NCBI GenBank assembly: GCA_963662465.1
Contig: OY759599.1
Span: 6,752,001-6,816,000 of the forward strand
Length of the DNA: 64,000 nt
Source: Desulfatiglandales bacterium
GTDB lineage: Bacteria > Desulfobacterota > DSM-4660 > Desulfatiglandales > Desulfatiglandaceae
Direction of reading: 5' to 3'
In this document: positions 1,338 to 41,711 of the stretch, piece after piece
Layout of the letters: each line of letters opens with the position of its first letter
Position numbering within the stretch: the stretch's first letter is position 1
The notes under the pieces: generated by a model
What the model saw: only the letters and a program-made list of their open reading frames with translations
Databases searched by the model: none
What the model was told of the DNA's origin: nothing
Translations under genes and position numbers: made by a program

Positions 1338-1505
1338 TTCAGCACCTCTCTTTATGTCTGTTCCTCGGTAAGTTGCCAAGGACATATCCCGTCAGATATT
1401 ATCATTATCCCGAGAAATGAGGATACATACAGGTGCGTTTTTCGTCAACTCTTTTGGTGATGGCATACCCTTCATTCCAATTCGCCGGGGCGCATGATGG
1501 GCTTT

Positions 1506-1624
1506 GGCCAACACCATTATAAGCGGGCGTTACACCAAACTTGAGTTTACGGTGAATTTGCCAAAATCGACAAATCTGAAATCGGCAACGGCTTATAGCG
1601 CTCCGCTTGATAAATTTGTTATGT
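1506..1624 (-). repeat. attC site (divergent type)
   Basis: R'' ACATAAC contains the stop codon of ORF 1619-2125; arms AAGCGGAGCGC / ACGCCCGCTT; R' GTTGGCC. Confidence 0.85.
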
Positions 1625-2125: not shown

Positions 2126-2132
2126 ATTTTAT

Positions 2133-2192
2133 ACATAACGCCGCTAATCAGCCGCGCGGCTTTTTGCGTCGGTTGCATTAGCCTTGTTAGCT
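2133..2192 (-). repeat. attC site (short, 60 bp)
   Basis: AGCTAAC-AAGGCTAATGCAACCGACGC...GCGCGGCTGATTAGCGGC-GTTATGT. Confidence 0.9.
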
Positions 2193-2501
2193 ATATAAAT
2201 TAGTAATCGTAACCAAGAGAACGAGGATTCATAATTTTTTAATGATTATTCTTTGCTTATTAGGGCTTCCTATTGATCACGGTTGCACACTGACCCCCTC
2301 CCTGAAACCATAAAGGTATTCATTGCTGAAAAACCTGGGAACTGTTCGCAAACAAAATTAATTTCTCAAAATTATGACGTAAATGAACACATGCCTTGCA
2401 ACATAGCTGCTTCTTAATCCCATAAGCCAGGTTTTGTGAATTCCCCGAAATATCACATGCATTGAATTTCGCCGACCGCCATTTTCAATGCCAGTTTTTT
2501 A

Positions 2502-3095
2502 TCATGCAATATTGTTTGATTTTTTCCTATTACATTCTTCACATAAAAGTTCAATATTTCTTGCGGTATTGCTACCACCTTCTGAAAATGGAATGATATG
2601 GTCATACTCAAGGTTTCTTCTACTTCCACAATTTACACATCTTCCCTTGTCCCTTCTCCACACTTCTCTTCTGACGCAGGATGGTATGTGTCTTGAACTT
2701 TTCTTTCTAGTATTTTCCAGATCAGTTCTTAGATATTCAATACTTTTGTTCTTTTCCCTTTCTTCGATGAATCTTTCAATATTAAGATCCATCTGCCTTT
2801 CAAGCTGTTCTTTTGTTGCGCATTTCAATGTTTTTACTGAGACGGTTTTTGAATTATAATCCCTTGAAGCCTTCCTTAGCTTACGCTCAATAACAAGACC
2901 GCTTTGCAACCTCTCTCTTATAATACCGTTCGCATTAAATTGTTCTACCTGCTCCCCGCACTCCTTACGTCGCCTTTCCTCCTCTTTTTTCCTATCTATA
3001 TTCGTTCCTTCTTCAGACTTCTTTCTAGATAGCCTTCCCTTTTCTTTCTCAAATACTTGCTTTTTTAGTTTTTTTAAGTAATTCTCAACATTCAT
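2502..3095 (-). CDS. HNH endonuclease domain protein
   Basis: RDKGRCVNCG...EYDHIIPFSEGGSN...LLCEECNRKK. Confidence 0.88.
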   Translation of the reverse strand: MNVENYLKKLKKQVFEKEKGRLSRKKSEEGTNIDRKKEEERRRKECGEQVEQFNANGIIRERLQSGLVIERKLRKASRDYNSKTVSVKTLKCATKEQLERQMDLNIERFIEEREKNKSIEYLRTDLENTRKKSSRHIPSCVRREVWRRDKGRCVNCGSRRNLEYDHIIPFSEGGSNTARNIELLCEECNRKKSNNIA

Positions 3096-3109
3096 AATAA
3101 GGACTCATA

Positions 3110-3237
3110 AAGGGTGTTAAAACAATCAAAAATATTGGCAATAAAAACAGCATGTTGGGTTGAATTTGGACCAAAATCAATATGCAATGTAACCTGTTGA
3201 ATTTATAGCGGAAAACGCATATTGTTTTAACACCCTT
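3110..3237. mobile_element. MITE (128 bp)
   Basis: 17-bp perfect TIR AAGGGTGTTAAAACAAT; 5-bp TSD TCATA (3105-3109 and 3238-3242). Confidence 0.8.
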
Positions 3238-13340: not shown

Positions 13341-14256
13341 GGTTAACGACAAGCTCACCGGCCCCCTGCACCGGGCTTTGCGATTACCCCGCCGCGTCCA
13401 GGGGTCCGGTGAAGCGTTTTGTTGTGTGCCGGGCACGGCACGTGTTCTTAAGGGTGCGCGTAATGTACCATGCTTCCGATATTTTACGCAAGTCCCAGAC
13501 CCAGCCAGGTAGTGGCGAAGGGTGTAGCGGTATCACAACTGGGTACCCGGTAACGGGCCTGGAGAGGCAGTGGCCTTGCCGCAGCAGGGCACCGCAAACG
13601 CACGGGGCGACGAACAGAAATCGAGTGAGGCGGGTCTGGTGGGACGAGTTCGCAACACAGAACAAAGTCCTCTAACTACTATAGGCCAGGCACGTATACT
13701 CGGCGCTCGTGTGCGGAAAGACACGTGTTTACCCCGGGAGGCCCGTTGCGTCTCGTAGGGAACTGCAACTGAAATCCACCGGAATATAAGGGAAAACCGG
13801 TAAAACAAAACCCTGGCGTCAGGAACATTTCGAGTCATAGCCCTGACGAGCCCGGCCTATTGGTCGGGAAACACAAACAAATGGACTCGACAGATTGCGG
13901 AAACCACGAGTGAGCGAACCGCAAGGGGAGCCCACCGCGTAACGGGAGTCAGCAGAGGGCATATTAAGCCGGAGAAACGAGCCCTGAATAAAGGGAAGCC
14001 TCACTCCGGTGAAGGCCCGAACGGTCCCACCTGCCGAATGGCAGGGGTAAATGGTCGTGGTTGTCAAAGAACGTGTACTTGTTGGCTTAATGCAGCAGTA
14101 GCTGAAAGGTCGATAACGTCGCATTCTGGAAAACCCGGTAGGGCGGAACCTGTTTTATCCGTGCCTGCTCTGACCAGCCGAATCGCCGTATACGGACCCG
14201 TATGTACGGTGGTGTGGGAGGGGGGAGCTGTGAGGCTCCTCCCTATCCCCATAACC
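13341..14256 (-). repeat. attC site interrupted in R'' by the IIC intron
   Basis: Removing 13424-14252 restores plus-strand GTT|AACC, complementary to GGTTAAC at 13341-13347. Confidence 0.88.
13424..14252 (+). mobile_element. ORF-less group IIC-attC intron, antisense to the cassettes
   Basis: 5' GTGTG; IIC domain I motifs (GGACGAGTTCGCAACACAGAACAAAGTCC; GGAAAGAC...TACCCCGGGAGG); DIII GAGTCAGCAGAGG; short IIC DV with CGC triad (14180 onward); DVI ending CTATCCCCAT; no RT ORF. Confidence 0.9.
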
Positions 14257-19097: not shown

Positions 19098-19577
19098 GCA
19101 CATAGTTCACTTAATAGCACGAAATTGCGGAGAAAATAAGAATCTCCTGACCGTTTTTCACTCGCCTTTTCACACATTGGGATTCCTAATATATCGGCAA
19201 AAGCCATCTCGCTGTTTAGGTAGAACCTTTCGGGTCGCACGGGTGTAGCCCGAGGTTTAATTAATGGGAAATAACTAAATCATCTTTACGCTAAAATATA
19301 ACCGATTATGGGTATTTAATGCTTTTGAATTTAGAATCTGCCATTGACCATAATAACTGAATGAACCCACCTTTTAATACCTCCAAATCATAAGCTTCAT
19401 CGTTGTATTTATATTTGAGCGGAATCATTTCTGTTGGCAAATTGTATTTCTTAATAAACGCACGCACAGAATTCGCTGGTATGCAATCCTGAGGAATACC
19501 AGAGTTATGATCCGAAATACTTATTTGATATTCATTTCTTGCTTTCCATAAGATACTGCTGCTTTGATAAATATTAA

Positions 19578-22312
19578 CTTATCGTTCGCGTTTTAAAAAT
19601 AAGTTCTGCAAATTTTGCCGAGGAGGCAGGCAGCACTTACTTGGCGGAACAACATCTCCACGATAAAATACGATATCAGAGGCATTGGTAGTACATCCCC
19701 GGTAAGGATACAGGCCCATAAGGGGAACAGGAACGAGCGCCTTGATAGATTGATTCGAAATTGTCGTAATTCATAGCTATTATTATTTTTTAATGGATTC
19801 AAAAACAATACGATAACATGCTGGAATAACGATGGACATTCACAGCTGTTTGTATTATATTAGTTTCCCAACATTACAACCACTTGAAATAACAGGGGAA
19901 CTATATGAACCGACATGTGACGCATGTGTTCATTTTCGCATCAGTGTGTTTTTTGGTTTGGTTTTGCAGTTTTTCAAAGGTGCAGGCATCACCTGTTTCA
20001 GCAGGTACTGGAAATAATATAAATGCCGGTGCATCATCAAATCAACAAACTGGTCAATCTGAAAATCAACCCAGACCTTTCGGTCAGAAGAATGATCGGC
20101 AGAAAATCCCAAAGCTTGAACGAAACAGGCTGGAAGAAGGTAAAAAATCAGCACCTGTAAGGAAACGAAAAAAAAAGAAAAAATCAAATAAAACGAAAAC
20201 TGCCAAGAAAAAGCGTGAGGGAACTCTATCATCGGATGATGATGCCTCTCACATTGCAAACAAAAGGAAAAAGGTCAAAAAGATTAACGTTACAGCAGAA
20301 AGAGTTGACGATATACCCCTATTGATAAAGGCCATGGTGAAAATGGGTATACAAGAAGCTATAGACCAACACATCCCAGTTCAAAAGAACCAAAGAGATT
20401 TGAGCTGGGGATGGACGGCTGTTATATGGTTGGCATATATGTTATCGGAGGGAGACCATCGCAAAGTAGTCGTCCGGGAATATGTATCTGGAATGCGGCA
20501 TACCTTAATCGAATTAACAGGATTGATAATCTCCGAAAATGATTTCACAGACGATCGTTTAGCGAATCTTGCCAGGTATTTAAGCGATAACGATATTTGG
20601 AGCAAAGTTGAAGAGAGAATAAGTGGCAATACGATTGAAGCATATGAGTTGCCGGAAGAAACTGTCAGGGTTGATGCTACGACTGTATCCGGCTACCACA
20701 AAACAGTTGAAGGTGGGATATTCCAATTTGGTGTTAGTAAAGACGACCCCAATAGACCGCAAATAAAAATCATGACGGGTTCGCTGGATCCTCTTGGGAT
20801 GCCGTTAGCCACGGATGTTGTTCCAGGGCAAATGGCCGATGACAAATTGTATGCACCTATCATAAGTCGCATTCACTCTATGCTCCAGAAACAAGGTGTC
20901 CTTTATGTGGGCGATTGCAAACTGAGTTCTCTTGAAAATCGTTTACACATTAAGGAAAAAGCGGAAGGACATTACTTATGTCCATTGCCTAATACTGGGA
21001 AAACCCCAGAATATATGGAGAAATGGATAGATGAAGGAAATTTGAAAGACAAAAAGAACGAGTTGATAAAGTACATCGTCCAAGACGATAAAGGTCAAGA
21101 GGAACTGAAAGCAAAAGGGTATGAGATAGAGCGTAACCAATCTGGTGAAATAAATGGAAAAGTGCTGAAATGGAAGGAACGCGTATTGATTGTAAAATCA
21201 CCAGCGTATGAAAAGCAAAAAGAACTGGGATTGGAACGACGGCTTAAAAGCGCCGAGGAAAAATTATATGCTCTGACACCACCAAGAGGCCCGGGGAAAA
21301 GGCAGATCAAAGAAAGAGAAAAATTAATAGAATCAGCAAAATCGATTTTGAAAAAACATAGGGTGAAAGATTTCCTTAAATATGAATATGTGCGGGAAGT
21401 AGAAAGTAAAACGAAATATATTGGTAAAGGTAGAGGGAGTGTCAAAAGAGAGAAAAAGGTTGAAGAAAGAATACGTTATCAAATAACAAAAGTGACACGG
21501 ATTAAGGAAGCAATAGATGCGGAGAAGAAGAAGTATGGGTGGAAGGCCTATGTTACAGATGTATCAAAGGAGCGACTTGATTTTATTGATGTAGTTAGGT
21601 CTTATCGAAAACAATACCGGGTTGAACGAATATTTAACCGACTGAAAAGTAGGCTAAACATCGCTCCATTTTACGTAAAAAGGGAAGATCAAGTTAAAGG
21701 AATAACGCATCTTCTGATGATAGGAGTCAGGGTAATTACTCTGGTTGAATTTGTTGTTCGCCGCTCATTAGCAAGAAGCGACGAAAAGCTTGTTGGATTG
21801 CACCTGGGAAATCCCAAGAAAGCTACGAACAATCCAATGTGTGAGAAGCTATTAAATGCTTTCAGCAAAATTACATTAACGATAATTGAAACAGGAGATA
21901 GTGTGATAAGACATCTAACCCCACTTTCTCAATTGCAACGTGAAATTCTAAAACACTTTGGACTTAGCACTTCTATATACGATAATTTAGAAGTTATGCA
22001 ATAGTAAAATATTATCGTCATAGTCCTTACAGGTTGTCACAATTGAAATACAGATTTTACGACAATTTATATGATTGTTGGAGATATGGAACGATGGTGT
22101 TTTACGCACGATCCATTCCATTTTCTGCCCTATTGTGTTGTTCCAATATTCGACGTGTGTTGTTTTTCAGGCTTTACTAACCCATGGATGCATGTTGCTC
22201 AAAAAGACTCCTGGTAGGCTTTCCGGAAATAACTTTTCCCCCTGCCAAGAGAGGTACCCTCTACCAGATTTCGAAATTAATCGAAGTGCAAATTTAAAAC
22301 GCGAACGATAAG
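19578..22312 (+). mobile_element. IS1634-family insertion sequence (second type)
   Basis: 20-bp perfect TIR CTTATCGTTCGCGTTTTAAA; 6-bp TSD TATTAA. Confidence 0.9.
19905..22004 (+). CDS. IS1634-family DDE transposase
   Basis: ERVDDIPLL, VRVDATT, SKDDPNRPQIK, VGDCKL, YRKQYRVERIFNRLK. Confidence 0.87.
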   Translation: MNRHVTHVFIFASVCFLVWFCSFSKVQASPVSAGTGNNINAGASSNQQTGQSENQPRPFGQKNDRQKIPKLERNRLEEGKKSAPVRKRKKKKKSNKTKTAKKKREGTLSSDDDASHIANKRKKVKKINVTAERVDDIPLLIKAMVKMGIQEAIDQHIPVQKNQRDLSWGWTAVIWLAYMLSEGDHRKVVVREYVSGMRHTLIELTGLIISENDFTDDRLANLARYLSDNDIWSKVEERISGNTIEAYELPEETVRVDATTVSGYHKTVEGGIFQFGVSKDDPNRPQIKIMTGSLDPLGMPLATDVVPGQMADDKLYAPIISRIHSMLQKQGVLYVGDCKLSSLENRLHIKEKAEGHYLCPLPNTGKTPEYMEKWIDEGNLKDKKNELIKYIVQDDKGQEELKAKGYEIERNQSGEINGKVLKWKERVLIVKSPAYEKQKELGLERRLKSAEEKLYALTPPRGPGKRQIKEREKLIESAKSILKKHRVKDFLKYEYVREVESKTKYIGKGRGSVKREKKVEERIRYQITKVTRIKEAIDAEKKKYGWKAYVTDVSKERLDFIDVVRSYRKQYRVERIFNRLKSRLNIAPFYVKREDQVKGITHLLMIGVRVITLVEFVVRRSLARSDEKLVGLHLGNPKKATNNPMCEKLLNAFSKITLTIIETGDSVIRHLTPLSQLQREILKHFGLSTSIYDNLEVMQ

Positions 22313-22948
22313 TATTAAATACATCAATATAATCGCTTAATATTTCGCGTTCATTATTTGTAAGCTTCATATCTTTTAAAATCAAAATTTCGGTTTTCAG
22401 ATTTTTAATAAGTTGTTCAAATCGTCCATAATTAATTCCGAGGCTTGTTTCACTCTGAATGGTTTTTAAAATCTTATATGATTCCTGAAATTTTTTTTTA
22501 TCCACTCTCAAATATTGATAATAAATAAAAATAGCTACAACTAGAAAAAAAATCCCACCAAAAATTATAAAAAAACGCATCGATAAAAATCTATGCAAAA
22601 ACAAAGTTTTAGATTTGTGAATGTCATCGGTTTCAAATTCTTGATTTCTATCTTTCCTACCTCTTTTGGCTATTTGATGTGTAAAGGCAGATTTTTTGGG
22701 TTTATTATTCGCTTTTTTTATCTCCTTTTCAGTCTTATTCTTTTTAAATCTCTCTTCGCCATCTTTCTTTGTTTTTTTTGAATGGAATTCTTCCCATTTT
22801 TTGAATATAATTCCGCATTTGGGACATTCTGTATTTTGTTTATCACTCTCAAAACCACAATTTGGGCAAGTCTTCATGTTGTCTTCCTAAATTGAAAAAA
22901 TGAGAAAGTTGTTAAATCAATGGTCACAGTACTTTCGAATGAATATTT

Positions 22949-25319: not shown

Positions 25320-25407
25320 CCCTAACGACAAGCTCACCAGCGCCGTGCACGGACTACCCTTGGAAATCCGCATGGCATACGGCGTCTGGTGAAGTGTTTG
25401 GTTCGCG
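25320..25407 (-). repeat. attC site (main family)
   Basis: R'' CGCGAAC, ...GGTGAGCTTGTC-GTTAGGG. Confidence 0.92.
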
Positions 25408-25521
25408 ACTTCACAGCTTAATTTGAATAATGCCGATTTTGGTAGCAAAATGACATTATAGGATTGTAAACAGGTAGAAGTTCCATGTCCTATATGACGG
25501 AAAAACGGTAACCATTTAGCG

Positions 25522-28500
25522 TTATTGTTTTATTTTTAGAAAACAGCCATTTTCAATAATTGCACCACTTTTTACATTAACTTTTGGTGCTTTCAAGATA
25601 ACTTTGGCCCCGTTTTGGATTCTTGTTCCAGAGTCGATGGTGATGGATTTTTCGGCGGTGACTTCACAATTCGTTTCTGAATTAAATCTAATGTTCTTGT
25701 AGACTGGATTATCAGAGAGAGAATAGTAAGGAGATTGGCCTTTTGATAATCGAAACACAGTTGTCGCGCATGGATAAATCTGAACGACTCTTTCTGCAAC
25801 AAGGGTTTCACCTGAAAAAAACTTGAGTGTTACATCTTCCAAAAAAGCTTTCTCATTTAATCCGTTCAATCTGTAAGCAATCCCCCAATTACAGTTTGGA
25901 GAAGAATAGCTAAAATCCCTATCACGAAAAGTAAACACAGCATAATCTGGATGCTTAAAAAGATCGTACCAAAATAACGATTCAGGATTAATACCGAAAT
26001 TTCCGCAGTACTCCAAACTTGTTTCAATTCTTGTAATATTACCATAGCCAGAATCCCGACAGTCAACAATCAAACCACCACGACTTAGATCAACACCGGA
26101 TTCCGAATATACAACATGGTAAGTATCGTGGTACGTGTACCCGGTCTCCCTGGGAAATTCATCTTCAATTTCCATTGAAATAAGTGCGTCTTTCCCAACA
26201 GGAGTAGGCTCATTGCCAACAAATTTCGATATAAGCTCCGCAACCCTAGAGTCATATCGCATTTCATCATGGTCTATATACATCAGCCACAGGGGAACAC
26301 GAAGTCCTTCCGTGTTTAATGGTAGCAGGCTTGCGCTACTTATGGATACCACCCCATCGTCATGATTAGGAGCTTCGTTATGCGCTACTCCCGCCCAGAT
26401 ATATGTTTTCGTGCCGGCAACAACACGAGCGGCAATTTCGCTTGGAAATTCTTTGCCAACCATCTCTAGTAAATTTGGGCTGCCTGGGGTGAGTTCTTCG
26501 TAAATTGGTGCATGGGGATCCAAGTGGGTCCAGAGTCTCTGCGCCACAGCAAACGTATCATCCTCATAAATCCTTTGTGCACTGTATGACCCATGGTGCG
26601 GGGGACCAAACATGATTATCTTTCCAATATTAATGCTTGCCTCATCCGCATGGTCTATGCAATACTTTCTAACAATAACACCTCCATAGCTGTGAGTTGC
26701 AACGTTAAATTTCCTGCCGGGATAGAATCTCCCTACGTCCTTTATAGCAGACCTGAAAAGTTCAGAACAGGCTACTATGGTTTCTGTCCCTCGGTAATTG
26801 AATACCCAGGTGTTCTCAGTAGACTCTTTCTTCCTCAGATTGGACACGTTGTCTTCCCAATACCCAGACTGACCATTAATACCATGCACGATTAAGGTAG
26901 GCTCTTTAATGCCATCATATATCTTGTCCTGATTTCCTGAATTAGCGTTGTAAGGGGCCTCTAAGACGTAATTTCGGAGATCTCTATGGTTGGGGCTATA
27001 ACATTTCTGCCCATCAAGGGATAGATTTTCGGACCAGTCACTATCTTTCAAAACCCTAACATTTTGAATAATTGGTATTTTTATTTTGGAATTGTAATCG
27101 ATTGCTCTGTAATGCAAAGTCCACCAGGTAACCGAATTTTCATAGCCTGGATCGGTAGGGTAGAAAAAAAGATATCTTGTTTCATCGAGATTAAGGTGTT
27201 CGGTTTTTTCCCAAAAAAATGAATCGTTTCGCTTAAAGTCTTCCAAATCGGTGATATCCAGCGTAAGCCTGCCATTGGAAACATTGAAAGATTTCAAAAC
27301 ATAGCCTATCAATGTGGCTGGTTCAAAAATAAAAGCATAAGATAGGTCGCTGAAATAAGGGTAAAAATAAGTTTTTGGGTCAAGAACGCTTGATAAACTA
27401 GGAGGTGGGAGTTTCACATAAAGTTTCCCATTCAGCTTTTCATCATTTTCACCTTTGATATTAATTATGATATCTTTACTTACTTGTGGAGGTTCAACAG
27501 ATCCGTCCCGGACAGGCCAAACATAGTAATGGGTTGATTTGATATTATCATCAAGTTTTCCAGTGCGAACGTAGAGAATCGTTGCCCAATTGTGGTCTGT
27601 GGGGTGTGTACTCGACGACCAATAATATGGGTCTGACCCAAGATTTACAAAAGGATGTTCAAGGGGTAACGAGGGATGGTCTTGGGAAAAATCCGCTAGG
27701 GTTTGAAGTTCTTTTCTATTTGGTAGCCGCCAATCACCATAAGTTCCGGTATAGCCACTACAGGTGTAGTTTGAAGGGTTTGAATTTAGACCACTTACCG
27801 CATCCAATGCTTCTTGCCAAGTTTTGGTTCCAAAACAGTTGGCGTCTAGGAGCCAAATAAGTCCAGTCAGATTATCTTTAACCGTACCATCTCCGTTGTT
27901 TGAAAACCTCGGCTCAGGCCAATGTGCTCCCCGCTCTAAGTCACCATCGTCACCAGCTGCATAGCTTACTTTTTGACCAGTTTGCCACACCTGGGCAGGA
28001 GGCGTACTTAATCTTCGAACTGGCCAAGGATAGTAAGTAATAGACTTCTTTTGATAATGAGTGTGGCCATTAGGCATTTCCATCCCCCAAGCTACATCTT
28101 CACCGTTGGTTGAAGACCAATAATTGGACGATTTTACATCCTTAAATCCTTGACTATTAAGCCATACGGCTGAATCCGTTTCTCCCGGATTGGCCAAACT
28201 TTCCAGCTCATGGATATTGGGGAGGACCCAATCGCCATATGTCGCTGTATATCCACCGCAAGAATACTTTCCGGGATTTGCGTTAAGGTCGGCCACTGAA
28301 CCCAACGCCTCCACCCAATTTTTGGTTTGGAAGCAATTGCCGCTTTTGAGCCACATAAGGCCTGTCAAGTGGTCCACCACCGTTCCATCACCGTTATCCG
28401 AGAATCTTGGGTCTGGCCACACAACTCCTGCCCGGATGTCTCCATCCTGTCCGGTCCCCACGCAAGAAATTACGTTCCCAGTAGAATCATAGCAAATTTT

Positions 28501-28620
28501 CTGACCAGTTTCAGGAAGATCAACCGTATTTGCATATGACAGCTCTGAATATATTGAAGTCGATAATACCATACCAATTAAGAATACTATCATGGAAATC
28601 AAGATTTCATTTCTCATCAT
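25522..28620 (-). CDS. Secreted 2x DUF1566 + alpha/beta hydrolase protein
   Basis: Start taken as MMRNEIL (RBS AAGGAG); signal peptide; two Lcl domains; VHGING, THSYGG, DDGVV. Confidence 0.86.
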   Translation of the reverse strand: MMRNEILISMIVFLIGMVLSTSIYSELSYANTVDLPETGQKICYDSTGNVISCVGTGQDGDIRAGVVWPDPRFSDNGDGTVVDHLTGLMWLKSGNCFQTKNWVEALGSVADLNANPGKYSCGGYTATYGDWVLPNIHELESLANPGETDSAVWLNSQGFKDVKSSNYWSSTNGEDVAWGMEMPNGHTHYQKKSITYYPWPVRRLSTPPAQVWQTGQKVSYAAGDDGDLERGAHWPEPRFSNNGDGTVKDNLTGLIWLLDANCFGTKTWQEALDAVSGLNSNPSNYTCSGYTGTYGDWRLPNRKELQTLADFSQDHPSLPLEHPFVNLGSDPYYWSSSTHPTDHNWATILYVRTGKLDDNIKSTHYYVWPVRDGSVEPPQVSKDIIINIKGENDEKLNGKLYVKLPPPSLSSVLDPKTYFYPYFSDLSYAFIFEPATLIGYVLKSFNVSNGRLTLDITDLEDFKRNDSFFWEKTEHLNLDETRYLFFYPTDPGYENSVTWWTLHYRAIDYNSKIKIPIIQNVRVLKDSDWSENLSLDGQKCYSPNHRDLRNYVLEAPYNANSGNQDKIYDGIKEPTLIVHGINGQSGYWEDNVSNLRKKESTENTWVFNYRGTETIVACSELFRSAIKDVGRFYPGRKFNVATHSYGGVIVRKYCIDHADEASINIGKIIMFGPPHHGSYSAQRIYEDDTFAVAQRLWTHLDPHAPIYEELTPGSPNLLEMVGKEFPSEIAARVVAGTKTYIWAGVAHNEAPNHDDGVVSISSASLLPLNTEGLRVPLWLMYIDHDEMRYDSRVAELISKFVGNEPTPVGKDALISMEIEDEFPRETGYTYHDTYHVVYSESGVDLSRGGLIVDCRDSGYGNITRIETSLEYCGNFGINPESLFWYDLFKHPDYAVFTFRDRDFSYSSPNCNWGIAYRLNGLNEKAFLEDVTLKFFSGETLVAERVVQIYPCATTVFRLSKGQSPYYSLSDNPVYKNIRFNSETNCEVTAEKSITIDSGTRIQNGAKVILKAPKVNVKSGAIIENGCFLKIKQ

Positions 28621-28713
28621 GTGAGGTTCTCCTTCCTTAACGGCTGCTATTTCCCGAATACGCTTGAGCACATGAAGGCAACGGGCCAAACCGAGCACCG
28701 TCATGTATCGCAC

Positions 28714-30939
28714 GTCGAGTAGCCAGGGGATGTTGCCATCCCCCAGCCCTCTAAGAACCGTGCGTGCGCCGTTAAACGCACACGGCTCAAGCATTCCAAA
28801 GGCAAGCCCTTTCGGGGCTACCCGGTTGTGACGTTTTATGCTCTTTACGCCTGTCTGCCTTCTGCTGACTGCGTTGGGCATATCGTTTCCTGAAATAGTG
28901 TTCATATTTCGGATCGAAGGGGTTCGCATCCCCTCGAATTTTGACATGGCGTTTTATCTTGACGTCGTAAGCTTTCTCAAGTTCAATTCTAGCGGATTTC
29001 GCATAGCCGTCCTTGATCACCGCTGAAAAGGACCACGGACGAGATCCTTTTGACCAGTATTTATCCACCAGCCAACTCTTACTCTTGCCCGAATGTTTCC
29101 TCCTCATCCATTGCCAAATATAGCTGTAGATACGGTGATCTACAAGCCCGAAAGTTCTACCGGAAACCACATGCCTGTGGTAATTGGCCCATCCCCTGAT
29201 TTTGGGATTGAGCACTTTAATCAGGGTGTCGGCTCTTGATGCCGCATGCTTTCGGATCGTTTGCCGGATATTGCCTAAGAAGGCTTTCACGTTTTTACGA
29301 GAGGGCTTTATCAAGAGCTTCCCCTGGTATTTGCGTGGATTCTGTCCGAGAAAATCAAATCCTTCTTCTATCCTTGTGATCAACGTCTTTTCCGCTGAAA
29401 GCGAAAGTCCTCTTCGCTCCATAAATGCTTCAATTTCCAGCTTGATCTCATTTAGCATCTCTCTGGAATTCCCGGTGATGATGAAATCATCAGCGTAACG
29501 GATTACGTTTATCTTGGACCGTATATTGCCCTGGATTCTTATCGGGGCGGTACTTTTGGCTGCCGCTTCCAGACCATCCAGGACCATATTAGCCAATGTT
29601 GGAGAGATAATCCCGCCTTGCGGGGTTCCTCTGTAAGTCGGATAGAGCTTGCCTCCTTCCACATAACCGGATTTCAGCCATTTCTGAAGCGTCCGTTTAT
29701 CCATGGGGATATTTTCGAGCATCCATTGATGGCTGATTTCGTCAAAACAGGCCTTTATGTCTCCCTCCAAAATCCATGCGGGTGAGTAGCTCTTGGCCAG
29801 AGAAATAAAACAATGACCGATGGCATCCGCACATCCTCGATAGGCTCTGAACCCATAAGAGTTCGGATCGGCGGTGGTTTCCGCCACCGGATCAAGGGCC
29901 AGTTTGTGCAACGCCTGCATGGCTCTGTCTTTCATGGTGGGAATGCCCAATGGGCGTTTCTTGCCGTTTTTCTTGGGTATGTAAATTCGGCGCAGCGGTT
30001 TGGGTCGGTAAGTTCTTCGGTGCAGGTCTTTTGCCGCCTGCATTTTGTCAATGTGGGTGGACCATATAACTTTATCCACTCCCGGCGTGCGTTTACCTCG
30101 GTTGGAAGTAACGCGCTTGATGGCCAACAACTTGGCATAAAACGAATGGGTCAAAAGCCATTGTATTGCCTTAACCTTTCCCCATCGCTTTTCCTTCACA
30201 GCCTTTGCGATACGCACCTGCAGTCTTCTAACGTGCTCGCCGGCGGTTCTCCAGTTTATGGATTTCCACCAGTTTGTTCCGTCCAAAGGTGCACCAGTCG
30301 CCAAAATGGCCACCGTCATTTGCTTTCCCCTGTTTGAAGATTCTACAAATTATCTCGCAATGGAACACCGGTCAGAAGTCTGCTCTCTTTCGAGCCGGAT
30401 CATGTAGGTGATTACACCGTCAATCCGTATCCCCATCATTACAACGGGGCATTTGCTTTTTTCTGACATCCTTTACCCGCAACCCCATGGGCTCACCTTG
30501 CGGTTCGCTTTCCCCGTGGGGAGGATTACGGGCTTACCATGTTCCGCGTAAGTACCCGAGCAGGTTAGGTTCCGCCCGTACGCCGGTGGCACGACATCCG
30601 CGATGGAGGAGTTCGCAGCCCCCATACCTGGCCACATACCGTTTGGTCCAAGCCTTTCAGCATCTTAGGCTTGTTCTCGTGACGACGCTGCAGCGATTCA
30701 CATGTGTTAACCATACTGCTCAATTCTAGCTCCCTTACCGCATGATGCTTGCAGAGTTGAGGTCTCCTCACGGTTCCCTCTCCCGGAAGATTCCGCGGGC
30801 TTCATTGTCCCGAGAGCTTCACACCCCCGGATTACTCCGGACGCATGTCCCGGTAGAATACCTGTTGCAGAAAACAGGGTTTTGTTATATGGTTTATATC
30901 AATATACAAAACAGCTACTTACGCGACATCACGTCGCAC
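28714..30939 (-). mobile_element. Complete group II intron (IIB, chloroplast-like RT lineage) inserted in attC R', same sense as the cassettes
   Basis: 5' GTGCG; DV GAGCCGTGTGCG...CACGCACGGTTC; 3' CTACTCGAC; EBS1 GCGAAC (30611-30616); EBS2 ACAAGC (30669-30674). Confidence 0.93.
28787..30319 (-). CDS. ltrA: Group II intron reverse transcriptase/maturase, no HNH endonuclease domain
   Basis: INW...VRRLQVRIAKA N-terminus; RPLGIPT; GTPQGGIISP; YADD. Confidence 0.95.
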   Translation of the reverse strand: MTVAILATGAPLDGTNWWKSINWRTAGEHVRRLQVRIAKAVKEKRWGKVKAIQWLLTHSFYAKLLAIKRVTSNRGKRTPGVDKVIWSTHIDKMQAAKDLHRRTYRPKPLRRIYIPKKNGKKRPLGIPTMKDRAMQALHKLALDPVAETTADPNSYGFRAYRGCADAIGHCFISLAKSYSPAWILEGDIKACFDEISHQWMLENIPMDKRTLQKWLKSGYVEGGKLYPTYRGTPQGGIISPTLANMVLDGLEAAAKSTAPIRIQGNIRSKINVIRYADDFIITGNSREMLNEIKLEIEAFMERRGLSLSAEKTLITRIEEGFDFLGQNPRKYQGKLLIKPSRKNVKAFLGNIRQTIRKHAASRADTLIKVLNPKIRGWANYHRHVVSGRTFGLVDHRIYSYIWQWMRRKHSGKSKSWLVDKYWSKGSRPWSFSAVIKDGYAKSARIELEKAYDVKIKRHVKIRGDANPFDPKYEHYFRKRYAQRSQQKADRRKEHKTSQPGSPERACLWNA

Positions 30940-31024
30940 GCGAACGACAAGCTCAGCGGCCCCTCCACCGGCCCCCGCCGGAACCGCCAGACTTCCAGGG
31001 GTCCGCTGAAGCGCCTGGTTCGCC
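30940..31024 (-). repeat. attC site (main family); intron inserted after GTTCGC
   Basis: GGCGAAC-CAGGCGCTTCAGCGGACCCC...GGGGCCGCTGAGCTTGTC-GTTCGC. Confidence 0.92.
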
Positions 31025-31045: not shown

Positions 31046-31258
31046 TCAGCCAGTTGCAGCAATTTTTTCAGACTGTTCATCTAAAGCTCTGAGCGTTTCT
31101 TGGATAGCTATTACTTCCGTCTCATCAAAATAGGTCTCACCGCATTGGCTGCATACCCAAGCAGGAATTCTATCCATAGTGAGATGGTATCCCTTCCGAT
31201 CAACATGAAAAGGAGCAATGCCTTTTTCCATCTTTCCTTGACAGTAAATGCAGTTCAT
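31046..31258 (-). CDS. YgiT-type zinc finger (MqsA-like) antitoxin
   Basis: MNCIYCQG...IPAWVCSQCGE. Confidence 0.85.
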   Translation of the reverse strand: MNCIYCQGKMEKGIAPFHVDRKGYHLTMDRIPAWVCSQCGETYFDETEVIAIQETLRALDEQSEKIAATG

Positions 31259-31584
31259 GATCGTTTCCTCTTTTTGAAATCTGATTCCCATTCGCGGGGA
31301 TTGGGAATATACGCTGTAATGATGGCCAGGTAATCAGTTTTAGGCGAGCAAACGATGTGTATTGAGCGACCGTCTACACCCTGCCCCAAAATCAGGCAGC
31401 TATGCCCTCGCGAATCCCCCGGATAATCCTCAACCAATTCACCTTGCTCCACTGCCTTTCTAACATCAAGGGGACTTATCATTCTGTCCGGTCTGGACAT
31501 CTGCCGCACAGCATGCGGGAGGTAAATGATCCTCTTCCCCGCACTCTCTCGGGCTGACTTTATGGTATCAGAAACTTCATTCAT
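31255..31584 (-). CDS. DUF4258 putative toxin
   Basis: PHAVRQM, VEDYP, SCLILG, IHIVC, ITAYIP..W. Confidence 0.85.
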   Translation of the reverse strand: MNEVSDTIKSARESAGKRIIYLPHAVRQMSRPDRMISPLDVRKAVEQGELVEDYPGDSRGHSCLILGQGVDGRSIHIVCSPKTDYLAIITAYIPNPREWESDFKKRKRS

Positions 31585-33794: not shown

Positions 33795-35918
33795 TCTCAC
33801 GGTAGGAACGCCGGTCACCCAGCGCCCCCCGCACAGTCCCGGACGTGCGGTTTTCCCGCATCCGGTTCCTCGGTTGTACTCGCTTTCGCGCAAAGCATCA
33901 GCATTAGCAAAACACCTTTCGTGGCCGGGGTGCCGTCGGTAGCTTCGGTTTGGCGATCCCCAGGCGATTTATGGCCCGGTTGAAAGCCTTCCAGGTGAAA
34001 CTTCTCCGCTTACCCCCTCTTCGGTTCAGCCACTTAAACGCACAATCACTCGCCCATCGGTAAAAACGCCATAACGAATTGGCGTTCCCCACCACGCTGT
34101 AATAGTTGTAATGTCCGCGCAGTTTGCGGTTGAGCGTCTTTATGAACGCAATCCCCTTCAAATGTCGGTTTTCCTTCACCCATTCCTTGATGCGCCTGCA
34201 GGCACCCTGCAGCTTTTTACGGCCGGTGCGCTGCATGACTCTCACCTTTCCCTGTTTGTCATAGGTCCAGTAGGTCTCAAAACCCAAAAAGACAATCCGC
34301 CTGCGCATGCTCGGATCAAAACGACTGAATCGCATCATGGCGGTTTTATCAGGCGCTACACTGAGGCCAAACTTCAAAAGCCTTTCGGGCAGCACGTGGA
34401 AAAACCCTTTTGCCTCTTTTTTGTACTGAAAAGCACAGACAAAATCATCTGCGTACCGAATGATCATGGCGGCCCCTTTACAGTGGGGCTTCACCACCTT
34501 TTCAAACCATAAGTCAAGGGCAAAATGCAGGTAGACATTGGCCAAAACCGGCGATACAATCCCCCCTTGGGGAGTACCGCTGTCCGGATGGATAATTTTG
34601 CCATCCGTATCCAGAATGCCGGCTTTAAGCCATTTTTGGATCAGATTTAAAAACGGCGCATCATCAACTCTTTCCATGAGCATTCGCATCAGCCAATCAT
34701 GGTCCATATGGTCGAAAAAGCCTTTGATATCGGCCTCGACGACATATCCATATGATCCAAACTGAAGTTCAAAACGCAAATCATTGACAGCGTCTTTTGC
34801 GCTTCGGTTGGGCCTGTAACCATAGCTGACATTCAGAAAGTCAGCTTCGAATATGGCTGTCAGGAGTTTGGCACATGCCAATTGCACCAACCGGTCTTCA
34901 AGGGCCGGAATGCCCAAGGGGCGTTGTTTGCCGTTTTCTTTGGGGATGTAACTTCTGCGTACCAGTTTGGCACGGTAACGTCTGGTTTTCAATCGCTCCG
35001 CCAATGACGCGATATTGGCCTCAAGATTTCCTTCGTAGGCCTCGGCCGTCACTTTGTCCACACCACTGGCTGCATCCTTATTCAGGTCTTTCCAGCAGGC
35101 ACGGAGAAACGGCGCGTTCAGACACCGGTAAAGGTCTTGAAAGCGGTGTTTTCCATCAACTTTTGCCTTAATGGCTATTCCCTGCAGTGAGGTTGGCTCG
35201 TATTGTTCCAGCCCTACATTGTCCGGTGCGAGTTTCCTTTGCAGACTGCGTACTTCCGTCAGGTCCTTCCCCATGTGGTGGGCTTTCCCCACCGCTGAGT
35301 AGTATGCCTGATAAGACACCCCATTGGCGTATAGAGGGCCATCGGAGGTCCGATTTTCCTCCCACCCGGTTGTTCCTTTCAGCATTTCGGCTGTGTAGTG
35401 AACCACTGTTACTTTACCTCACCGTCAGTGTGAAATAAACTCCCTGGAGCCTTTGGGGCTTCCCGAGTTCTACGGCGCATCTCTTCCTGCATGCCACGGC
35501 CTGAGGACTCCGGCGGACCTCCACATCCTCGCCATAAACGGATGCTTCCGTGTTGCCTTCGGTGAACGTTCAAACCCTCGGCGTCCGCAATTGCTATTTC
35601 GAAGCTGTACCAGCACTTCAGGGTGCGCGATCACCCCTGCGGCCTACAGGATACTCTGCCTACGCTTAACCCATCTTGTTCGCTGCTTCCACCGTTAGGT
35701 GGGGTGAGTCCATCCGCCTATTTGCTCATCCCTGAGCGCGGCTCGTTTCCAACCAGCATATGAATGCCGATGTCCTACACCTGACAGACTGAACAACTCC
35801 GCCATGGGTCCAAGGCTCGATACGGGTGGGTGGCTAACCCTTACAGAAAGCCATTACTGATTTTCCTCCCGACAGGGACTTTCACCCTGCAAGATACGCC
35901 GAGCTTTCCTCGGCGCGA
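33795..35918 (-). mobile_element. Complete group II intron (bacterial class E-like RT) inserted in attC R' after GTTC; non-canonical termini
   Basis: Starts TCGCGCCGAGG; EBS1 GAACGTT (35565-35571) matches the exon AACGTTC; DV GAACCGGATGCGGGAAAACCGCACGTCCGG; ends CCTACCGTGAG(A); 3' boundary uncertain by 1 nt. Confidence 0.88.
33904..35406 (-). CDS. ltrA: Group II intron reverse transcriptase/maturase, no endonuclease domain; true start probably near 35200
   Basis: TSLQGIA.KA, RFQDLY, RPLGIPALED, GTPQGG, YADD. Confidence 0.93.
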   Translation of the reverse strand: MVHYTAEMLKGTTGWEENRTSDGPLYANGVSYQAYYSAVGKAHHMGKDLTEVRSLQRKLAPDNVGLEQYEPTSLQGIAIKAKVDGKHRFQDLYRCLNAPFLRACWKDLNKDAASGVDKVTAEAYEGNLEANIASLAERLKTRRYRAKLVRRSYIPKENGKQRPLGIPALEDRLVQLACAKLLTAIFEADFLNVSYGYRPNRSAKDAVNDLRFELQFGSYGYVVEADIKGFFDHMDHDWLMRMLMERVDDAPFLNLIQKWLKAGILDTDGKIIHPDSGTPQGGIVSPVLANVYLHFALDLWFEKVVKPHCKGAAMIIRYADDFVCAFQYKKEAKGFFHVLPERLLKFGLSVAPDKTAMMRFSRFDPSMRRRIVFLGFETYWTYDKQGKVRVMQRTGRKKLQGACRRIKEWVKENRHLKGIAFIKTLNRKLRGHYNYYSVVGNANSLWRFYRWASDCAFKWLNRRGGKRRSFTWKAFNRAINRLGIAKPKLPTAPRPRKVFC

Positions 35919-36307: not shown

Positions 36308-37483
36308 CTATGCTGCTTGGGCATGTATCATGTCCTGGACTTTATTGAACCTCGGAAGCTCTCTTAACTTTTTGACCGGCGTCAATATTTCCAGAGTTAT
36401 GAGGCGTTTCCCGCAAACAGGGCAACAATCCGGTCGCTCGTCGCTTCGCTGTTGCCAGAGACTCTGCCAATCCAGGAATTCCAGACTTTCAAGAGGCGGT
36501 TGACCCAGTATTTCCCGGCAGAGTGCCAGTTCTTCTTTTGAGCTGTGATGATAGAGTCCGTATGAACGCACCATCACGGTATTCGCTAGGGGGACGTGTT
36601 GCAGATAGCGGCTGATAAAGGTTTGAATCGGCAGGGAGATGAGTTCCACCTTCTCACGACCGTAATTGAAGGTCACGTTCCCGTTTTCAATGCTGTAGAT
36701 GCGTTTGTTTGAAATTGGCCCGCCTCTCAAGTAACGCGCCAGGTAAATCAACACGCCTTCGCCGTATGAATAGGTCTCTTTGAGCTTGACGTTCCATTTT
36801 TTGCGGCGGCCCAGTTTATTGAAGAGGTTCCGGGCCTGCTGAGGCCCCATACCCTCGGGCAGAACCAGTTCGTTCCGATCCAGGGCTTTTCTCAAATAGT
36901 AGAGGTACTTGCCTCGAAATACCGCCCGGACGATGCCAAAGGGCAAAAGGAATTTTTTTGATGAAGCGATCCACTCGCCGGCGATCAGCCCACCGGCCGT
37001 TACCAGACAATGCAGATGCGGATGAAAGTCCAGTTTTCGGCTCCAGGTATGCAGTGAGGCGATGATGCCGACTTTGCCCCCCAAATGCTTCGGATCTCCA
37101 AGGAGTTCGGAAAGGGTTTCAGTGGCGCTTTTGAACAGCAGATTGCCCATAAGCTTGCGGTTCAACCGCCATAAGTCGTGCAATTCATCGGAGATGGTGA
37201 AAATAACATGGAAATGTTCGGTGTTTAAGATGCGAGCCTTTTGTTTTGCCAGCCAACGTTCCACCTGGGTAAAAGCGCAGAGGGGGCACATGCGATGTTT
37301 ACACGAGTTGTACCAGTGCATTTTGAAGTGACCGTCCGGGCACGCCTGCACGTGACCCCCCAGAGCAGATGTGCGGCAACTCATCAGACGGTGTGCCGCT
37401 TCACGAATATGTTCCGGAAGAAGATGGGTCTGATCATAGAGGGCATAGCCTATAAGAAAGATGCTCTGAATCGTCGCTTCCAC
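36308..37483 (-). CDS. IS91-family (Y2/HUH) transposase with Zn-binding N-terminus, as a gene cassette
   Basis: CRTSALGG, YNSCKHRMCPLC, HVIFT, HPHLH, YLARY. Confidence 0.9.
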   Translation of the reverse strand: MEATIQSIFLIGYALYDQTHLLPEHIREAAHRLMSCRTSALGGHVQACPDGHFKMHWYNSCKHRMCPLCAFTQVERWLAKQKARILNTEHFHVIFTISDELHDLWRLNRKLMGNLLFKSATETLSELLGDPKHLGGKVGIIASLHTWSRKLDFHPHLHCLVTAGGLIAGEWIASSKKFLLPFGIVRAVFRGKYLYYLRKALDRNELVLPEGMGPQQARNLFNKLGRRKKWNVKLKETYSYGEGVLIYLARYLRGGPISNKRIYSIENGNVTFNYGREKVELISLPIQTFISRYLQHVPLANTVMVRSYGLYHHSSKEELALCREILGQPPLESLEFLDWQSLWQQRSDERPDCCPVCGKRLITLEILTPVKKLRELPRFNKVQDMIHAQAA

Positions 37484-39273: not shown

Positions 39274-40449
39274 TTATGCTGCCTGAGCATATATCGTACC
39301 CGGGTCCTTATTGAATCTCGGAAGCATTTTTGACTTTTTTACCGGTACAAGTATTTCCAGCGTGATGAGACGTTTCCCGCAAACAGGGCAACGGTCCGGC
39401 TGCTCGTCGCTTCCCTTTTGCCACAGGGTCTGCCAATCCAGGAATTTCTGGTTTTCAAGGGGCGGTTGACCCAGTATTTCCCGGCAGAGGGCAAGTTCTT
39501 CTCCCAGGCTATGATGATAGAGCCCGTATGACCGCACCATTACGGAATTCGGCAAGGGAACGTGTTGCAGGTAGCGGCCAATAAAGGTCTGAATGGGCAA
39601 GGAGATGAGGTTTACCTGCTCACGACCGTAGTTGAAGGTCACGTTCCCGTTTTCAACGCGGTAGATGCGCTTGTTTGAAATCGGTCCGCCTCTCAGATAC
39701 CGAGCCAGGTAAATTAAGACCCCTTCTCCGTATGAATAGGTCTCCTTGAGTTTAACGTTCCATTTCTTGCGGCGGCCCAGCTTATTGAACAGGTTCCGTG
39801 CCTGTTGGGGCCGCATGCCCTCGGGCAGAACCAGTTCTCCCCGGGAAAGGGCCATCCTCAAATAGTGGAGATATTTGCCTCGAAACACCGCCCGGACGAT
39901 ACCAAAGGGCAAAAGAAACGTTTTTGATGAAGTAATCCACTCACCGGCGGCCAACCCACCGGCCGTTACCAGGCAATGCAGATGCGGGTGAAAGTCCAGT
40001 TTTCGGCTCCAGGTATGCAATGAGGCGATGATGCCGACTTTCGCGCCCAAATGCTTTGGGTCTCCAAGAAGTTCGGAAAGGGTTTCTGTGGCGCTTTTGA
40101 ATAGCAGATTGCTCATTACTTTGCGGTTCAACCGCCATAAGTCATGCAATTCATCGGAGATAGTGAAAATAACGTGGAAATGTTCCGTGTTTAAAATACG
40201 GGCCTTTTGTTTCGCAAGCCACCGTTCAACCTGGGTAAAAGCGCACAGTGGGCACATGCGATGTTTGCACGAGTTGTACCAGTGCCTCTTTAAATGGCCG
40301 TCCGGGCAGGCCTGCACGTGGCCCCCAAGAACGGAAGTGCGACAAACCATGAGACTGTGAGCAGCATTACGTATATGTTCAGGAAGACAATGTGTCTGAT
40401 CATAGAGGGCATAGCCGAGAAGAAAGATGCTCTGAATCGTCGCTTCCAC
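39274..40449 (-). CDS. IS91-family (Y2/HUH) transposase, first cassette of the array
   Basis: Same motifs and length (391 aa) as 36308-37483. Confidence 0.9.
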   Translation of the reverse strand: MEATIQSIFLLGYALYDQTHCLPEHIRNAAHSLMVCRTSVLGGHVQACPDGHLKRHWYNSCKHRMCPLCAFTQVERWLAKQKARILNTEHFHVIFTISDELHDLWRLNRKVMSNLLFKSATETLSELLGDPKHLGAKVGIIASLHTWSRKLDFHPHLHCLVTAGGLAAGEWITSSKTFLLPFGIVRAVFRGKYLHYLRMALSRGELVLPEGMRPQQARNLFNKLGRRKKWNVKLKETYSYGEGVLIYLARYLRGGPISNKRIYRVENGNVTFNYGREQVNLISLPIQTFIGRYLQHVPLPNSVMVRSYGLYHHSLGEELALCREILGQPPLENQKFLDWQTLWQKGSDEQPDRCPVCGKRLITLEILVPVKKSKMLPRFNKDPGTIYAQAA

Positions 40450-40730: not shown

Positions 40731-41711
40731 ATGTCAACAAAAAACCAGAAACTAATGGATGATGTTCATTCGGTTATGCGGCTCGGGCATTATTCGATTC
40801 ACACGGAAAGATCCTATTGCGATTGGATTAAGCGTTTTATACTTTTCCATGGTATGAAATCTCGTAATGATCTTCAGGGCGCCGAAAGTAAGATCGAGCA
40901 ATTTTTGACCCATCTCGCTGTCAAAGGCAATGTTTCTCCTTCAACTCAGAATCAAGCCATGAACGCCCTTGTATTTTTGTATAAGAAGGTTCTCAAAGAG
41001 TCTCTTGATGGCAGGATTGATGCCGTTCGTGCGAAAAGAAAGCAAAACATTCCCGTGGTTCTCACCAAGGATGAGGTGGTTTCCGTGATCGCGCTCATGC
41101 AAGGAACACCGCAAGTCTTTGTGAAACTGCTTTATGGCAGCGGACTGAGGATGATGGAAGGCATACGGCTGCGCGTTCAAGATATTGAATATGACTTAAA
41201 GGAAATTACCGTGCGTTCGGGGAAAGGGAACAAGGACCGGATTACTACGTTTTCCGTTTCCCTGGCGCCCCTGTTGAAAAGCCATCTTATAAGGGTCAAG
41301 GCGATTCATGAGAAGGATCTTGCTGAGGGAAACGGCGCCGTTTATTTGCCCTACGCTCTGGAACGTAAATATCCCAATGCCGCCAGGGAATGGCAATGGC
41401 AATACGTTTTTCCGTCCGGCAATTTGTCGCGTGATCCCAGAAGCGGTCGGATCAGGCGCCATCATATTGATCCTTCCGTCATCAATAAGGCCATAAAGGT
41501 GGCAGCCAAAAAGGCGGATATTCATAAACGCGTATCCTCACACACATTCCGCCACAGTTTTGCAACTCACCTCTTGCAGCGCGGAACAGACATCCGTACG
41601 ATTCAGGCGCTTTTGGGTCATTCTGACGTTTCCACTACCATGATTTATACTCACGTCCTTCGGCAGGGAGGTCATGGTGTTGTAAGCCCCCTTGATGATC
41701 TTGATCTATGA
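40731..41711 (+). CDS. intI: Integron integrase
   Basis: [28 protein letters not shown], IntI-specific [17 protein letters not shown] insertion, [15 protein letters not shown]...TMIYTH. Confidence 0.97.

Follow-up and report, generated by a model that had tools for sequence, protein, structure and literature searches.

Introns of the IIC-attC group insert into the bottom strand of integron attC sites at the R'' end (TTGT/T), lie antisense to the cassettes, and are described as recognising the attC hairpin together with a short intron-binding site 1 (IBS1) (PMC3001079, PMC7923331); one of them, S.ma.I2, is reported to impede transcription from Pc (PMC3001079). A sense IIB1 intron with a chloroplast-like 1 (CL1) reverse transcriptase (RT) behind attC has been reported once before, which tempers the novelty of what we describe here: UHB.I2 is a single CL1/IIB1 intron, in sense and immediately after attC, with ends 5' UUGCG..GU 3' (Sonbol and Siam 2021, Mob DNA 12:8, PMC7923331). 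In the sections of that report dealing with UHB.I2, no conservation of the exons was observed, a part for the hairpin was put forward as speculation, and pairing of R' with exon-binding site 1 (EBS1) is not named. We found no other report of a IIB intron at attC in the literature outside subscription journals. The subject of this text is a group II intron at positions 28714-30939 (minus strand) of a 64,000-nucleotide (nt) stretch of a Desulfatiglandales bacterium genome (contig OY759599.1, positions 6,752,001 to 6,816,000; hereafter the window), where it directly follows the R' core of an attC site.

This intron resembles UHB.I2 in its class (IIB1), its CL1 RT lacking an endonuclease domain, its orientation with the cassettes and its location immediately after attC, and the unusual 5' UUGCG of UHB.I2 matches a second intron lineage of this genome, the type 2 sibling described below. 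It differs in that UHB.I2 is one copy on one metagenome contig, whereas here there are 26 copies in one genome together with relatives elsewhere, and in that covariation and occupancy statistics here point to EBS1-R' pairing, the comparison being with UHB.I2 as published. An earlier reading of the window from its letters alone (the sequence-only reading) had described the known attC-targeting introns as class IIC, antisense and reliant on the hairpin; this holds for the IIC-attC group and is incomplete in view of UHB.I2. With IIC-attC introns such as S.ma.I2 the intron shares specialisation of a lineage on attC and an RT without endonuclease, but those introns, as described, use a 3-4 bp IBS1 plus a stem-loop and no EBS2, whereas here there is a 6-bp EBS1, an EBS2 and a CL1-like RT, and the two are mirror images in strand, end, orientation and mode of recognition. 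To our knowledge T.el4h/Th.e.I3 (Thermosynechococcus elongatus) and EcI5 (Escherichia coli), both IIB1/CL1 introns, do not target integron sites. The RT matches that of T.el4h over residues 8-485, and T.el4h as published likewise lacks the endonuclease domain and has its EBS2 in an internal loop, as here (PMC8643678). With a probability of roughly 0.85, we read the intron as an active or recently active IIB1/CL1 element without endonuclease that retrohomes into the top strand of integron sites mainly through base pairing.

A complete group II intron behind an attC core

The intron and the site that it occupies comprise the following features.

28714-30939, minus: complete group II intron, 2,226 nt, 5' GTGCG and 3' ...CGAC, ends common to 12 copies in its own genome
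30730-30879, minus: 5' part of domain I (Rfam group-II-D1D4-7, 122.5 bits, gathering score 34)
28787-30319, minus: intron-encoded RT/maturase, 510 amino acids (aa) (Pfam RVT_N, RVT_1, GIIM; TIGR04416, 362 bits)
28714-28790, minus: domains V and VI (RF00029, 55 bits)
28720, minus: bulged branch-point A in domain VI, 7 nt from the 3' end, pairing read from the sequence
30940-31024, minus: attC of the upstream (MqsA-like antitoxin) cassette, 85 nt, from alignment with 8 other attC sites of the window
31018-31024, minus: R'' of this attC, GGCGAAC
30940-30945, minus: R' core of this attC, GTTCGC, with the G/TT crossover between 30945 and 30944
40731-41708, plus: integron integrase IntI, divergent from the cassette array (TIGR02249, 454 bits, cut-off 265)

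The 5' GUGYG, domain V, the bulged A in domain VI and an open reading frame (ORF) in domain IV identify it as a mobile, ORF-containing group II intron, and a Pfam domain search of the 510-aa protein finds no HNH (endonuclease) domain. On the minus strand the order is ...GAGCTTGTC-GTTCGC, then the intron, GTGCGACGTG...GGCTACTCGAC, and then GTGCGATACATG, which puts the insertion after base 6 of R', in sense to the cassettes and 5 nt past the G/TT crossover. A paralogous empty site agrees with this: the cassette behind another copy, c7, recurs nine times at 99.3% identity, always directly after GTTGGA and free of the intron, so that the insertion point lies between R' base 6 and the next base. 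The sequence-only reading had described a complete intron without endonuclease, placed after the sixth base of R' in the orientation of the cassettes and 3' of the crossover, hence within the downstream cassette; Rfam, Pfam, the boundary sequence and the empty-site comparison bear all of this out. Its remark that the first G of the intron restores the R' heptamer is correct and trivial, as the seventh base is not conserved across the attC sites of this array. The ligated exon junction predicted for the spliced intron is GTTCGC/GTGCGATAC.

The integron around the intron is real. The attC at 30940-31024 forms an imperfect hairpin with a duplex of -16.9 kcal/mol (p=0.0007) in an anchored-duplex test with a null of 1,500 random GTT sites (5% at -9.3 and 1% at -11.9 kcal/mol), a test that replaced a detector demanding R''/R' pairing in the minimum-energy fold, which had missed obvious sites. 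The R'-side motif GCTTGTCGTTnnn, allowing up to 3 mismatches, has 29 matches on the minus strand of the window against 13.4 expected and a maximum of 22 in 100 shuffles, and 9 of the 29 can be aligned across roughly 85 nt as a single attC family. Inverted cores, an imperfect hairpin, repetition behind cassettes and a nearby IntI are thus all present.

Intron class

Compared with solved structures, the RT scores 568 bits (E 1.7e-169) against 6ME0 chain C, the T.el4h RT, 144 bits against 5G2X (LtrA, IIA) and 109-114 bits against the IIC RTs 7UIM and 6AR1, while a control RT of the same window (33907-35406) scores 130-140 bits on all four. The 6ME0 structure is described as that of T.el4h/Th.e.I3, a IIB1 intron with a CL1 RT (PMC8643678). 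UHB.I2, itself assigned to CL1, is reported to share 53% identity with a Shewanella CL1 intron (PMC7923331), and Shewanella relatives of the present RT are 53-55% identical to it. Alongside these scores, EBS1 and EBS2 covary with the exon across 36 relatives, as befits a IIB1/CL1 intron, a class whose EBS2 lies in an internal loop of subdomain ID, and the features of IIC and IIC-attC introns are absent, since the intron is in sense, sits in the top strand at R', has a 6-bp EBS1 and an EBS2 region, and scores low against IIC RTs. Because the RT is CL1-like and the EBS2 region covaries with the exon, we regard class C as excluded, in agreement with the sequence-only reading; membership of CL1 appears well supported by the scores against solved structures.

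Probable recognition of attC by EBS1 and EBS2

The 5' ends of relatives were placed by motif search in 48 of 80 genome loci; 24 gave no match and 8 had short flanks or false matches, and the loci without an identifiable 5' end include L040, L047, L043 and L049/50. Domain I was aligned in 36 rows, comprising the 28714-30939 intron, the type 2 sibling and 34 loci, with 14 near-duplicate or damaged loci set aside (L032, L042, L048, L070, L074, L080, L082, L085, L090, L092, L096, L097, L099 and L110). The elements concerned are as follows.

30603-30625, minus: EBS1 stem-loop ATGGGGG-CTGCGAACT-CCTCCAT, stem 30619-30625/30603-30609
30611-30616, minus: EBS1 GCGAAC, within the loop CTGCGAACT
30940-30945, minus: IBS1, the R' core GTTCGC and last 6 nt of the 5' exon, 6/6 complementary to EBS1
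30675-30680, minus: EBS2 by homology, ACGAGA, a single-stranded stretch immediately 5' of a conserved helix
30947-30951, minus: IBS2 CTTGT, exon positions -12 to -8, in the conserved L'/spacer part of attC
30649-30674, minus: conserved hairpin CAAGCC (30668-30673)/GGCTTG (30649-30654), containing ACAAGC at 30669-30674

All 7 pairs of the EBS1 stem change on both sides among the 36 rows, and in 28 of them its loop makes 6/6 pairs, counting Watson-Crick and G-U, to the final six bases of the exon. The mean is 5.67 EBS1-IBS1 pairs, compared with 3.94 +/- 0.15 (maximum 4.44) over 1000 shuffles of the assignment of exons. A covarying stem and exon pairing above that of the shuffles show that the EBS1 assignment is right, and the stem-loop with GCGAAC that the sequence-only reading had picked out is indeed the EBS1 stem-loop. 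EBS1 GCGAAC is also the same sequence as the R'' core of the attC.

The EBS2 proposed in that reading, ACAAGC at 30669-30674, did not survive the alignment and is rejected. Its CAAGC is the 5' strand of the CAAGCC/GGCUUG helix, of which 98.1% of cells are paired and 4 of 6 pairs change on both sides, and relatives aimed at sites other than attC retain it; only in the type 2 sibling does ACAAGC serve as the true EBS2. The reading is otherwise largely right for this copy. EBS2 proper is the stretch immediately 5' of the hairpin, as its sequence changes with the exon across relatives: the longest run complementary to the exon around -13 to -8 averages 4.97 in the 36 rows against 3.55 +/- 0.16 when shuffled. 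In the present copy EBS2 ACGAG pairs with CUUGU by 5 bp including one G-U. The corresponding EBS2/exon pairs elsewhere are:

type 2 sibling: ACAAGC / GCTTGT
L033: AAGTAG / CTACTT
L035, L037 and L038: GGGAG / CTCCC
L041: CTGCTT / AAGCAG, with EBS1 CTAACG and exon AAGCAG-CGTTAG
L057: ATCACA / TGTGAT

With EBS2 altered in L035/L037/L038 and both EBS1 and EBS2 altered in L041, relatives have adjusted their pairing to different attC families. Two nt 5' of EBS2 there is a U, which could pair with the A found at exon position -14, the two bases resembling the EBS2a-IBS2a interaction described for T.el4h and EcI5, with which they are consistent by eye only. The first 3' exon base, at the EBS3-IBS3 position, varies among copies.

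Copies in the genome and occupancy of sites

The host genome, 8.16 Mb in one contig, has 8 IntI-like matches and 26 related intron copies. Of these copies 21 come after attC R', 2 are stacked on a further copy, and the remaining 3 come after an attI-like GTT site. Twelve are of type 1, the same intron as at 28714-30939 by BLAST: ten lie directly after attC R', c6 lies behind c5, and c12 follows an attI-like GTT. The type 2 lineage, whose RT is 56% identical to that of type 1, consists mostly of ORF-less copies of about 815 nt starting TTGCG, and of its 14 copies or fragments 11 come after attC R', 1 is part of a tandem and 2 come after the attI-like repeat end. One of them reaches into the window:

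1-326, minus: 5' part of an ORF-less type 2 sibling (about 815 nt, continuing outside the window), starting TTGCGAC
327-332, minus: attC R' GTTGGC, which this sibling follows; its EBS1 is GCTAAC and its EBS2 ACAAGC

The c12 copy follows ...ACTGGTTCGT, where a 400-nt repeat ends. This repeat is present in six full copies, two lying some 0.7 kb away from intI genes, and the c12 site adjoins a split intI; the c12-flank motif has 0 matches within the window. We infer that this repeat end is an attI-like region. In a further copy, t2d (G000:C1:2371474-2371500), attC ...GAGCTTGTCG is joined directly to intron TTGCGAC and the usual TTGGC is missing, which could reflect a deletion or recombination, conceivably by IntI, using the intron's own TT.

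With an nhmmer profile built on the window's attC family, 56 sites are recovered from the genome, of which 55 reach the end of the model and 50 carry GTT, the profile missing other attC families such as that of c5; it replaced a 15-mer search for attC ends (up to 3 mismatches), whose 159 matches were mostly chance. The 50 GTT sites divide into 9 with a type 1 intron, 7 with a type 2 intron and 34 empty ones. Type 1 occupies 5 of 9 GTTCGC sites versus 4 of 41 with other R' hexamers (Fisher p=0.0055), and type 2, with EBS1 GCUAAC, occupies 4 of 11 GTTAGC/GTTGGC sites versus 3 of 39 others (p=0.034). Occupancy follows EBS1 complementarity.

These numbers bear on whether the attC hairpin is recognised as a structure, as in IIC introns, with the match between EBS1 and R' secondary. 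The hexamer GTTCGC occurs 2,851 times in the genome and the 12-nt IBS2+IBS1 sequence CTTGTNGTTCGC at 8 sites; all 4 of those in attC top strands are occupied and all 4 elsewhere are empty, which would fit recognition of the hairpin, and a role of the top-strand hairpin is what Sonbol and Siam speculated upon in their account of UHB.I2 (PMC7923331). One of the four empty sites is on an attC bottom strand and three lack an A at -14. We nevertheless consider recognition of the hairpin unlikely, as copies c12, t2c and t2k occupy attI-like sites with GTT and IBS1 and no hairpin, the close relatives L033, L036 and L044 match their non-hairpin sites perfectly in both EBS1 and EBS2, occupancy goes with the R' hexamer, and a folded top strand would have R' paired with R'' and inaccessible to EBS1.

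Relatives in other genomes

Relatives from 49 of the 80 loci were used. An attC-like hairpin ends at the insertion site in 9 of 47 evaluable genome loci (p <0.0007 to 0.024), namely L031, L035, L037, L038, L039, L041, L046, L048 and L051, all from Thermodesulfobacteriota; among the 47, none of the loci from Vibrio, Shewanella, Photobacterium, Pseudoalteromonas, Chloroflexota and others passed the hairpin test. An internal attC insertion in the Vibrio/Shewanella-type relatives (conserved 5' exon ..TAAC-N12-TGTCC/) was considered and rejected, as the joined flanks of 9 loci gave no attC-like hairpin. L041, L046 and L048 have an EBS1 register displaced by one, with the intron lying after GTTAG or GTTGG. 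From metagenomes 77 loci were examined, of which 36 were evaluable and 4 passed the hairpin test (L154, L156, L176 and L191); L155 has the same site with a mutated R''. That the lineage is specialised on attC, as the sequence-only reading had proposed, is supported by the 21 of 26 copies in the genome and these 9 of 47 relatives after attC R'; of the homologues, whose 5' exons it had suggested checking for attC ends, 38 of 47 genome loci and 32 of 36 metagenome loci lie at non-attC sites.

In a quick IQ-TREE phylogeny of 46 RTs (leaving out L031, L032, L043, L044, L045 and L049 for an internal stop and L051 for frameshifts) the attC-targeting rows all fall in one 15-row clade (Shimodaira-Hasegawa-like approximate likelihood ratio test, SH-aLRT, 94), with three non-attC rows (L033, L036 and L042) nested within it. 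On a FastTree phylogeny of 77 rows (L123 and L191 dropped for stops) the attC label must switch no fewer than 6-8 times and is nonetheless clustered, with 1 of 500 shuffles as low, and one clade (support 97) carries it in 8 of 12 rows. A clustered label with several changes indicates that R' targeting belongs chiefly to one clade, with a few others in which it either arose or was retained.

It could be argued that an ordinary IIB intron has merely chanced on one repeat family without a lasting tie to integrons, given that IIB introns home to any match of EBS1 and EBS2 and that most of the CL1 relatives (Vibrio, Shewanella, Chloroflexota) lie at the non-attC sites counted above. Such a passive association seems very improbable, because R' targeting recurs over divergent attC families and hosts (L035/37/38, L039, L041, L046/48 and L051) with EBS2 retuned and even the EBS1 register shifted, because the attC label clusters on the RT tree, and because two lineages only 56% identical target attC in one genome.

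Mobility and proposed mechanism

Copies c5 and c10 and the copy at 28714-30939 are 100% identical over 2,226 nt and lie in three different integrons with different 3' exons. Identical copies with different downstream cassettes indicate recent spread by retrohoming. Where copies are stacked, c5 (100%) is upstream of c6 (96.8%), followed by a type 2 copy; the youngest is thus nearest attC, as expected if the 5' exon alone is recognised.

The insertion 3' of the G/TT crossover makes the intron part of the downstream cassette, and the intron-bearing c7 cassette comes from a family that is itself amplified in integrons, so the copies might have spread mainly as passengers of cassettes moved by IntI rather than by retrohoming. 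Were this so, intron and cassette should travel together, and we found no identical intron-plus-cassette unit at two places among the copies of this genome. The three identical copies, like all others, differ in their 3' exons, those of c10 and c11 are each single in the genome, and the nine near-identical members of the c7 cassette family are intron-free; spread chiefly as a passenger is therefore improbable. Transport as cassette cargo by IntI may occur, to judge from the structure.

For retrohoming through base pairing we propose the following course. The position of the intron behind the R' core would follow from base pairing between that core and a loop of the intron RNA: EBS1 GCGAAC would pair with R' GTTCGC, and EBS2 ACGAG more weakly with CUUGU on the conserved L' side. 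The intron RNA would then reverse-splice after R' base 6, 5 nt past the IntI crossover, so that the attC hairpin and all but one of the seven R' bases would stay as they were. An RT without endonuclease presumably primes from the nascent DNA strand. Insertion 5 nt past the crossover places the intron within the downstream cassette, ahead of the coding part in its 5' untranslated portion, and the sense orientation of the intron makes transcription with the cassettes and subsequent splicing possible, so that the intron could be co-transcribed and removed. With only the 5' exon recognised, a filled site would remain a target and head-to-tail stacks could form.

Several observations weigh against this reading. 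No joint across 28714-30939 was seen in the contigs of four runs, two of them metatranscriptomes, one a DNA metagenome and one from the probable source organism, contigs being unable to show absence. The pairing of EBS2 is weak in the 28714-30939 copy, and sites with a poor IBS2 (those of c5 and c12) are used too. The 12-nt IBS2+IBS1 sequence does not seem sufficient for targeting: since every CTTGTNGTTCGC in an attC top strand is filled and the others are empty, some further pairing (IBS2a at -14) or the surrounding attC may play a part, the 8-site sample being too small to separate the two. The class call rests on one solved CL1 RT and proxy relatives in place of a classified reference tree. 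Finally, judged by cumulative GC skew, the origin lies near 5.74 Mb (a DnaA gene is at 5,768,164) and the terminus near 1.78 Mb. On that basis the intron sense strand templates leading-strand synthesis in 24 of the 26 copies, a bias different from the one usual for introns lacking an endonuclease. As the arrays fix the orientation of the intron, this strand bias says little about the priming route. By the same GC skew the cassettes of nearly all intron-bearing arrays read against the direction of replication, and the attC bottom strands are on the lagging-strand template.

Surrounding cassettes and other elements at integron sites

The cassettes to either side of the intron contain the following features.

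31046-31291, minus: small antitoxin-like cassette ORF, directly upstream of the intron-bearing attC
25321-28713, minus: 3' exon, the remainder of the downstream cassette, beginning GTGCGATACATG, followed by a ribosome-binding site and gene
28620 (ATG) to 25522 (stop), minus: secreted Lcl_C-domain protein of 1,032 aa, in the downstream cassette
25321-25326, minus: R' GTTAGG of the attC of the downstream cassette, aligned with the attC family of the window

Other introns occupy integron sites here. An ORF-less group II intron at 13424-14252 (plus; Rfam D1D4-3 at 13544-13728, RF00029 at 14181-14252) starts GTGTGCC right after ...GCGTTTTGTT, the R'' end of an attC with R' at 13342-13354, and has the IIC-attC arrangement (bottom strand, antisense). 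Its 5' end also flanks the attC of c1, c8, t2d and t2i, so that some attC sites bear introns at both ends. A third kind, at 33907-35905 (minus; Rfam D1D4-6), with a second copy in L111 at 1339-3146, encodes a 500-aa RT that is 33% identical and scores about equally against the IIA, IIB and IIC solved RTs; it appears to start a few bases after an R'-like GTTCTC (about 35907-35912), and its 5' end, GCGCCGAGG, is not the usual GUGYG. A further type, starting (T)TGCGACACGAAGTTGCTTTAAATAT, is found at G000:C1:440321-440620, 4983328-4983627 and 3306436-3306735, where it follows the mini copy c2mini, an attI-like repeat end beside intI, and another attC, with a 5' boundary that shifts by one base between sites.

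Two IS91-like transposase genes (Y2_Tnp plus Zn_Tnp_IS91) at 36311-37483 and 39277-40449, both on the minus strand, are packaged as cassettes directly behind GTTGGA cores and adjoin intI. A related cassette, 99.3% identical to the c7 3' exon, recurs 9 times elsewhere in the genome, 8 of these copies at a spacing of 1,609 nt (near 4.41-4.43 Mb). The 13-mer ACTTATCGTTCGC, which resembles an attC R' end, occurs at 19577-19589 (plus) and 22301-22313 (minus), and this inverted pair flanks the gene for a 699-aa DDE transposase (19905-22004).

Implications

The group II introns that accompany integrons have so far been treated as a speciality of class IIC, lying antisense and able to block cassette expression; here plain base pairing with the recombination core brings an intron of a different class to the opposite end and strand of attC. 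A natural IIB1 intron that targets every cassette junction has potential use in tagging or probing integron arrays, and the finding is relevant to the growth of cassette arrays and to the automated annotation of 2-kb interruptions at R'. More tentatively, and with the balance at present against it, the CL1/IIB1 clade may have co-evolved with integrons, using them as landing pad and vehicle in a mobile system of two layers. If so, EBS1 would be a copy of the R'' core and read the one feature common to all attC and attI sites, EBS2 would be retuned to the attC family of each host, and splicing from cassette transcripts would keep the cost low, with export by IntI together with the cassette and stacking in tandem. 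Integron sites are a recurrent niche for retroelements, and a sense-oriented, spliceable intron suggests residence at low cost.

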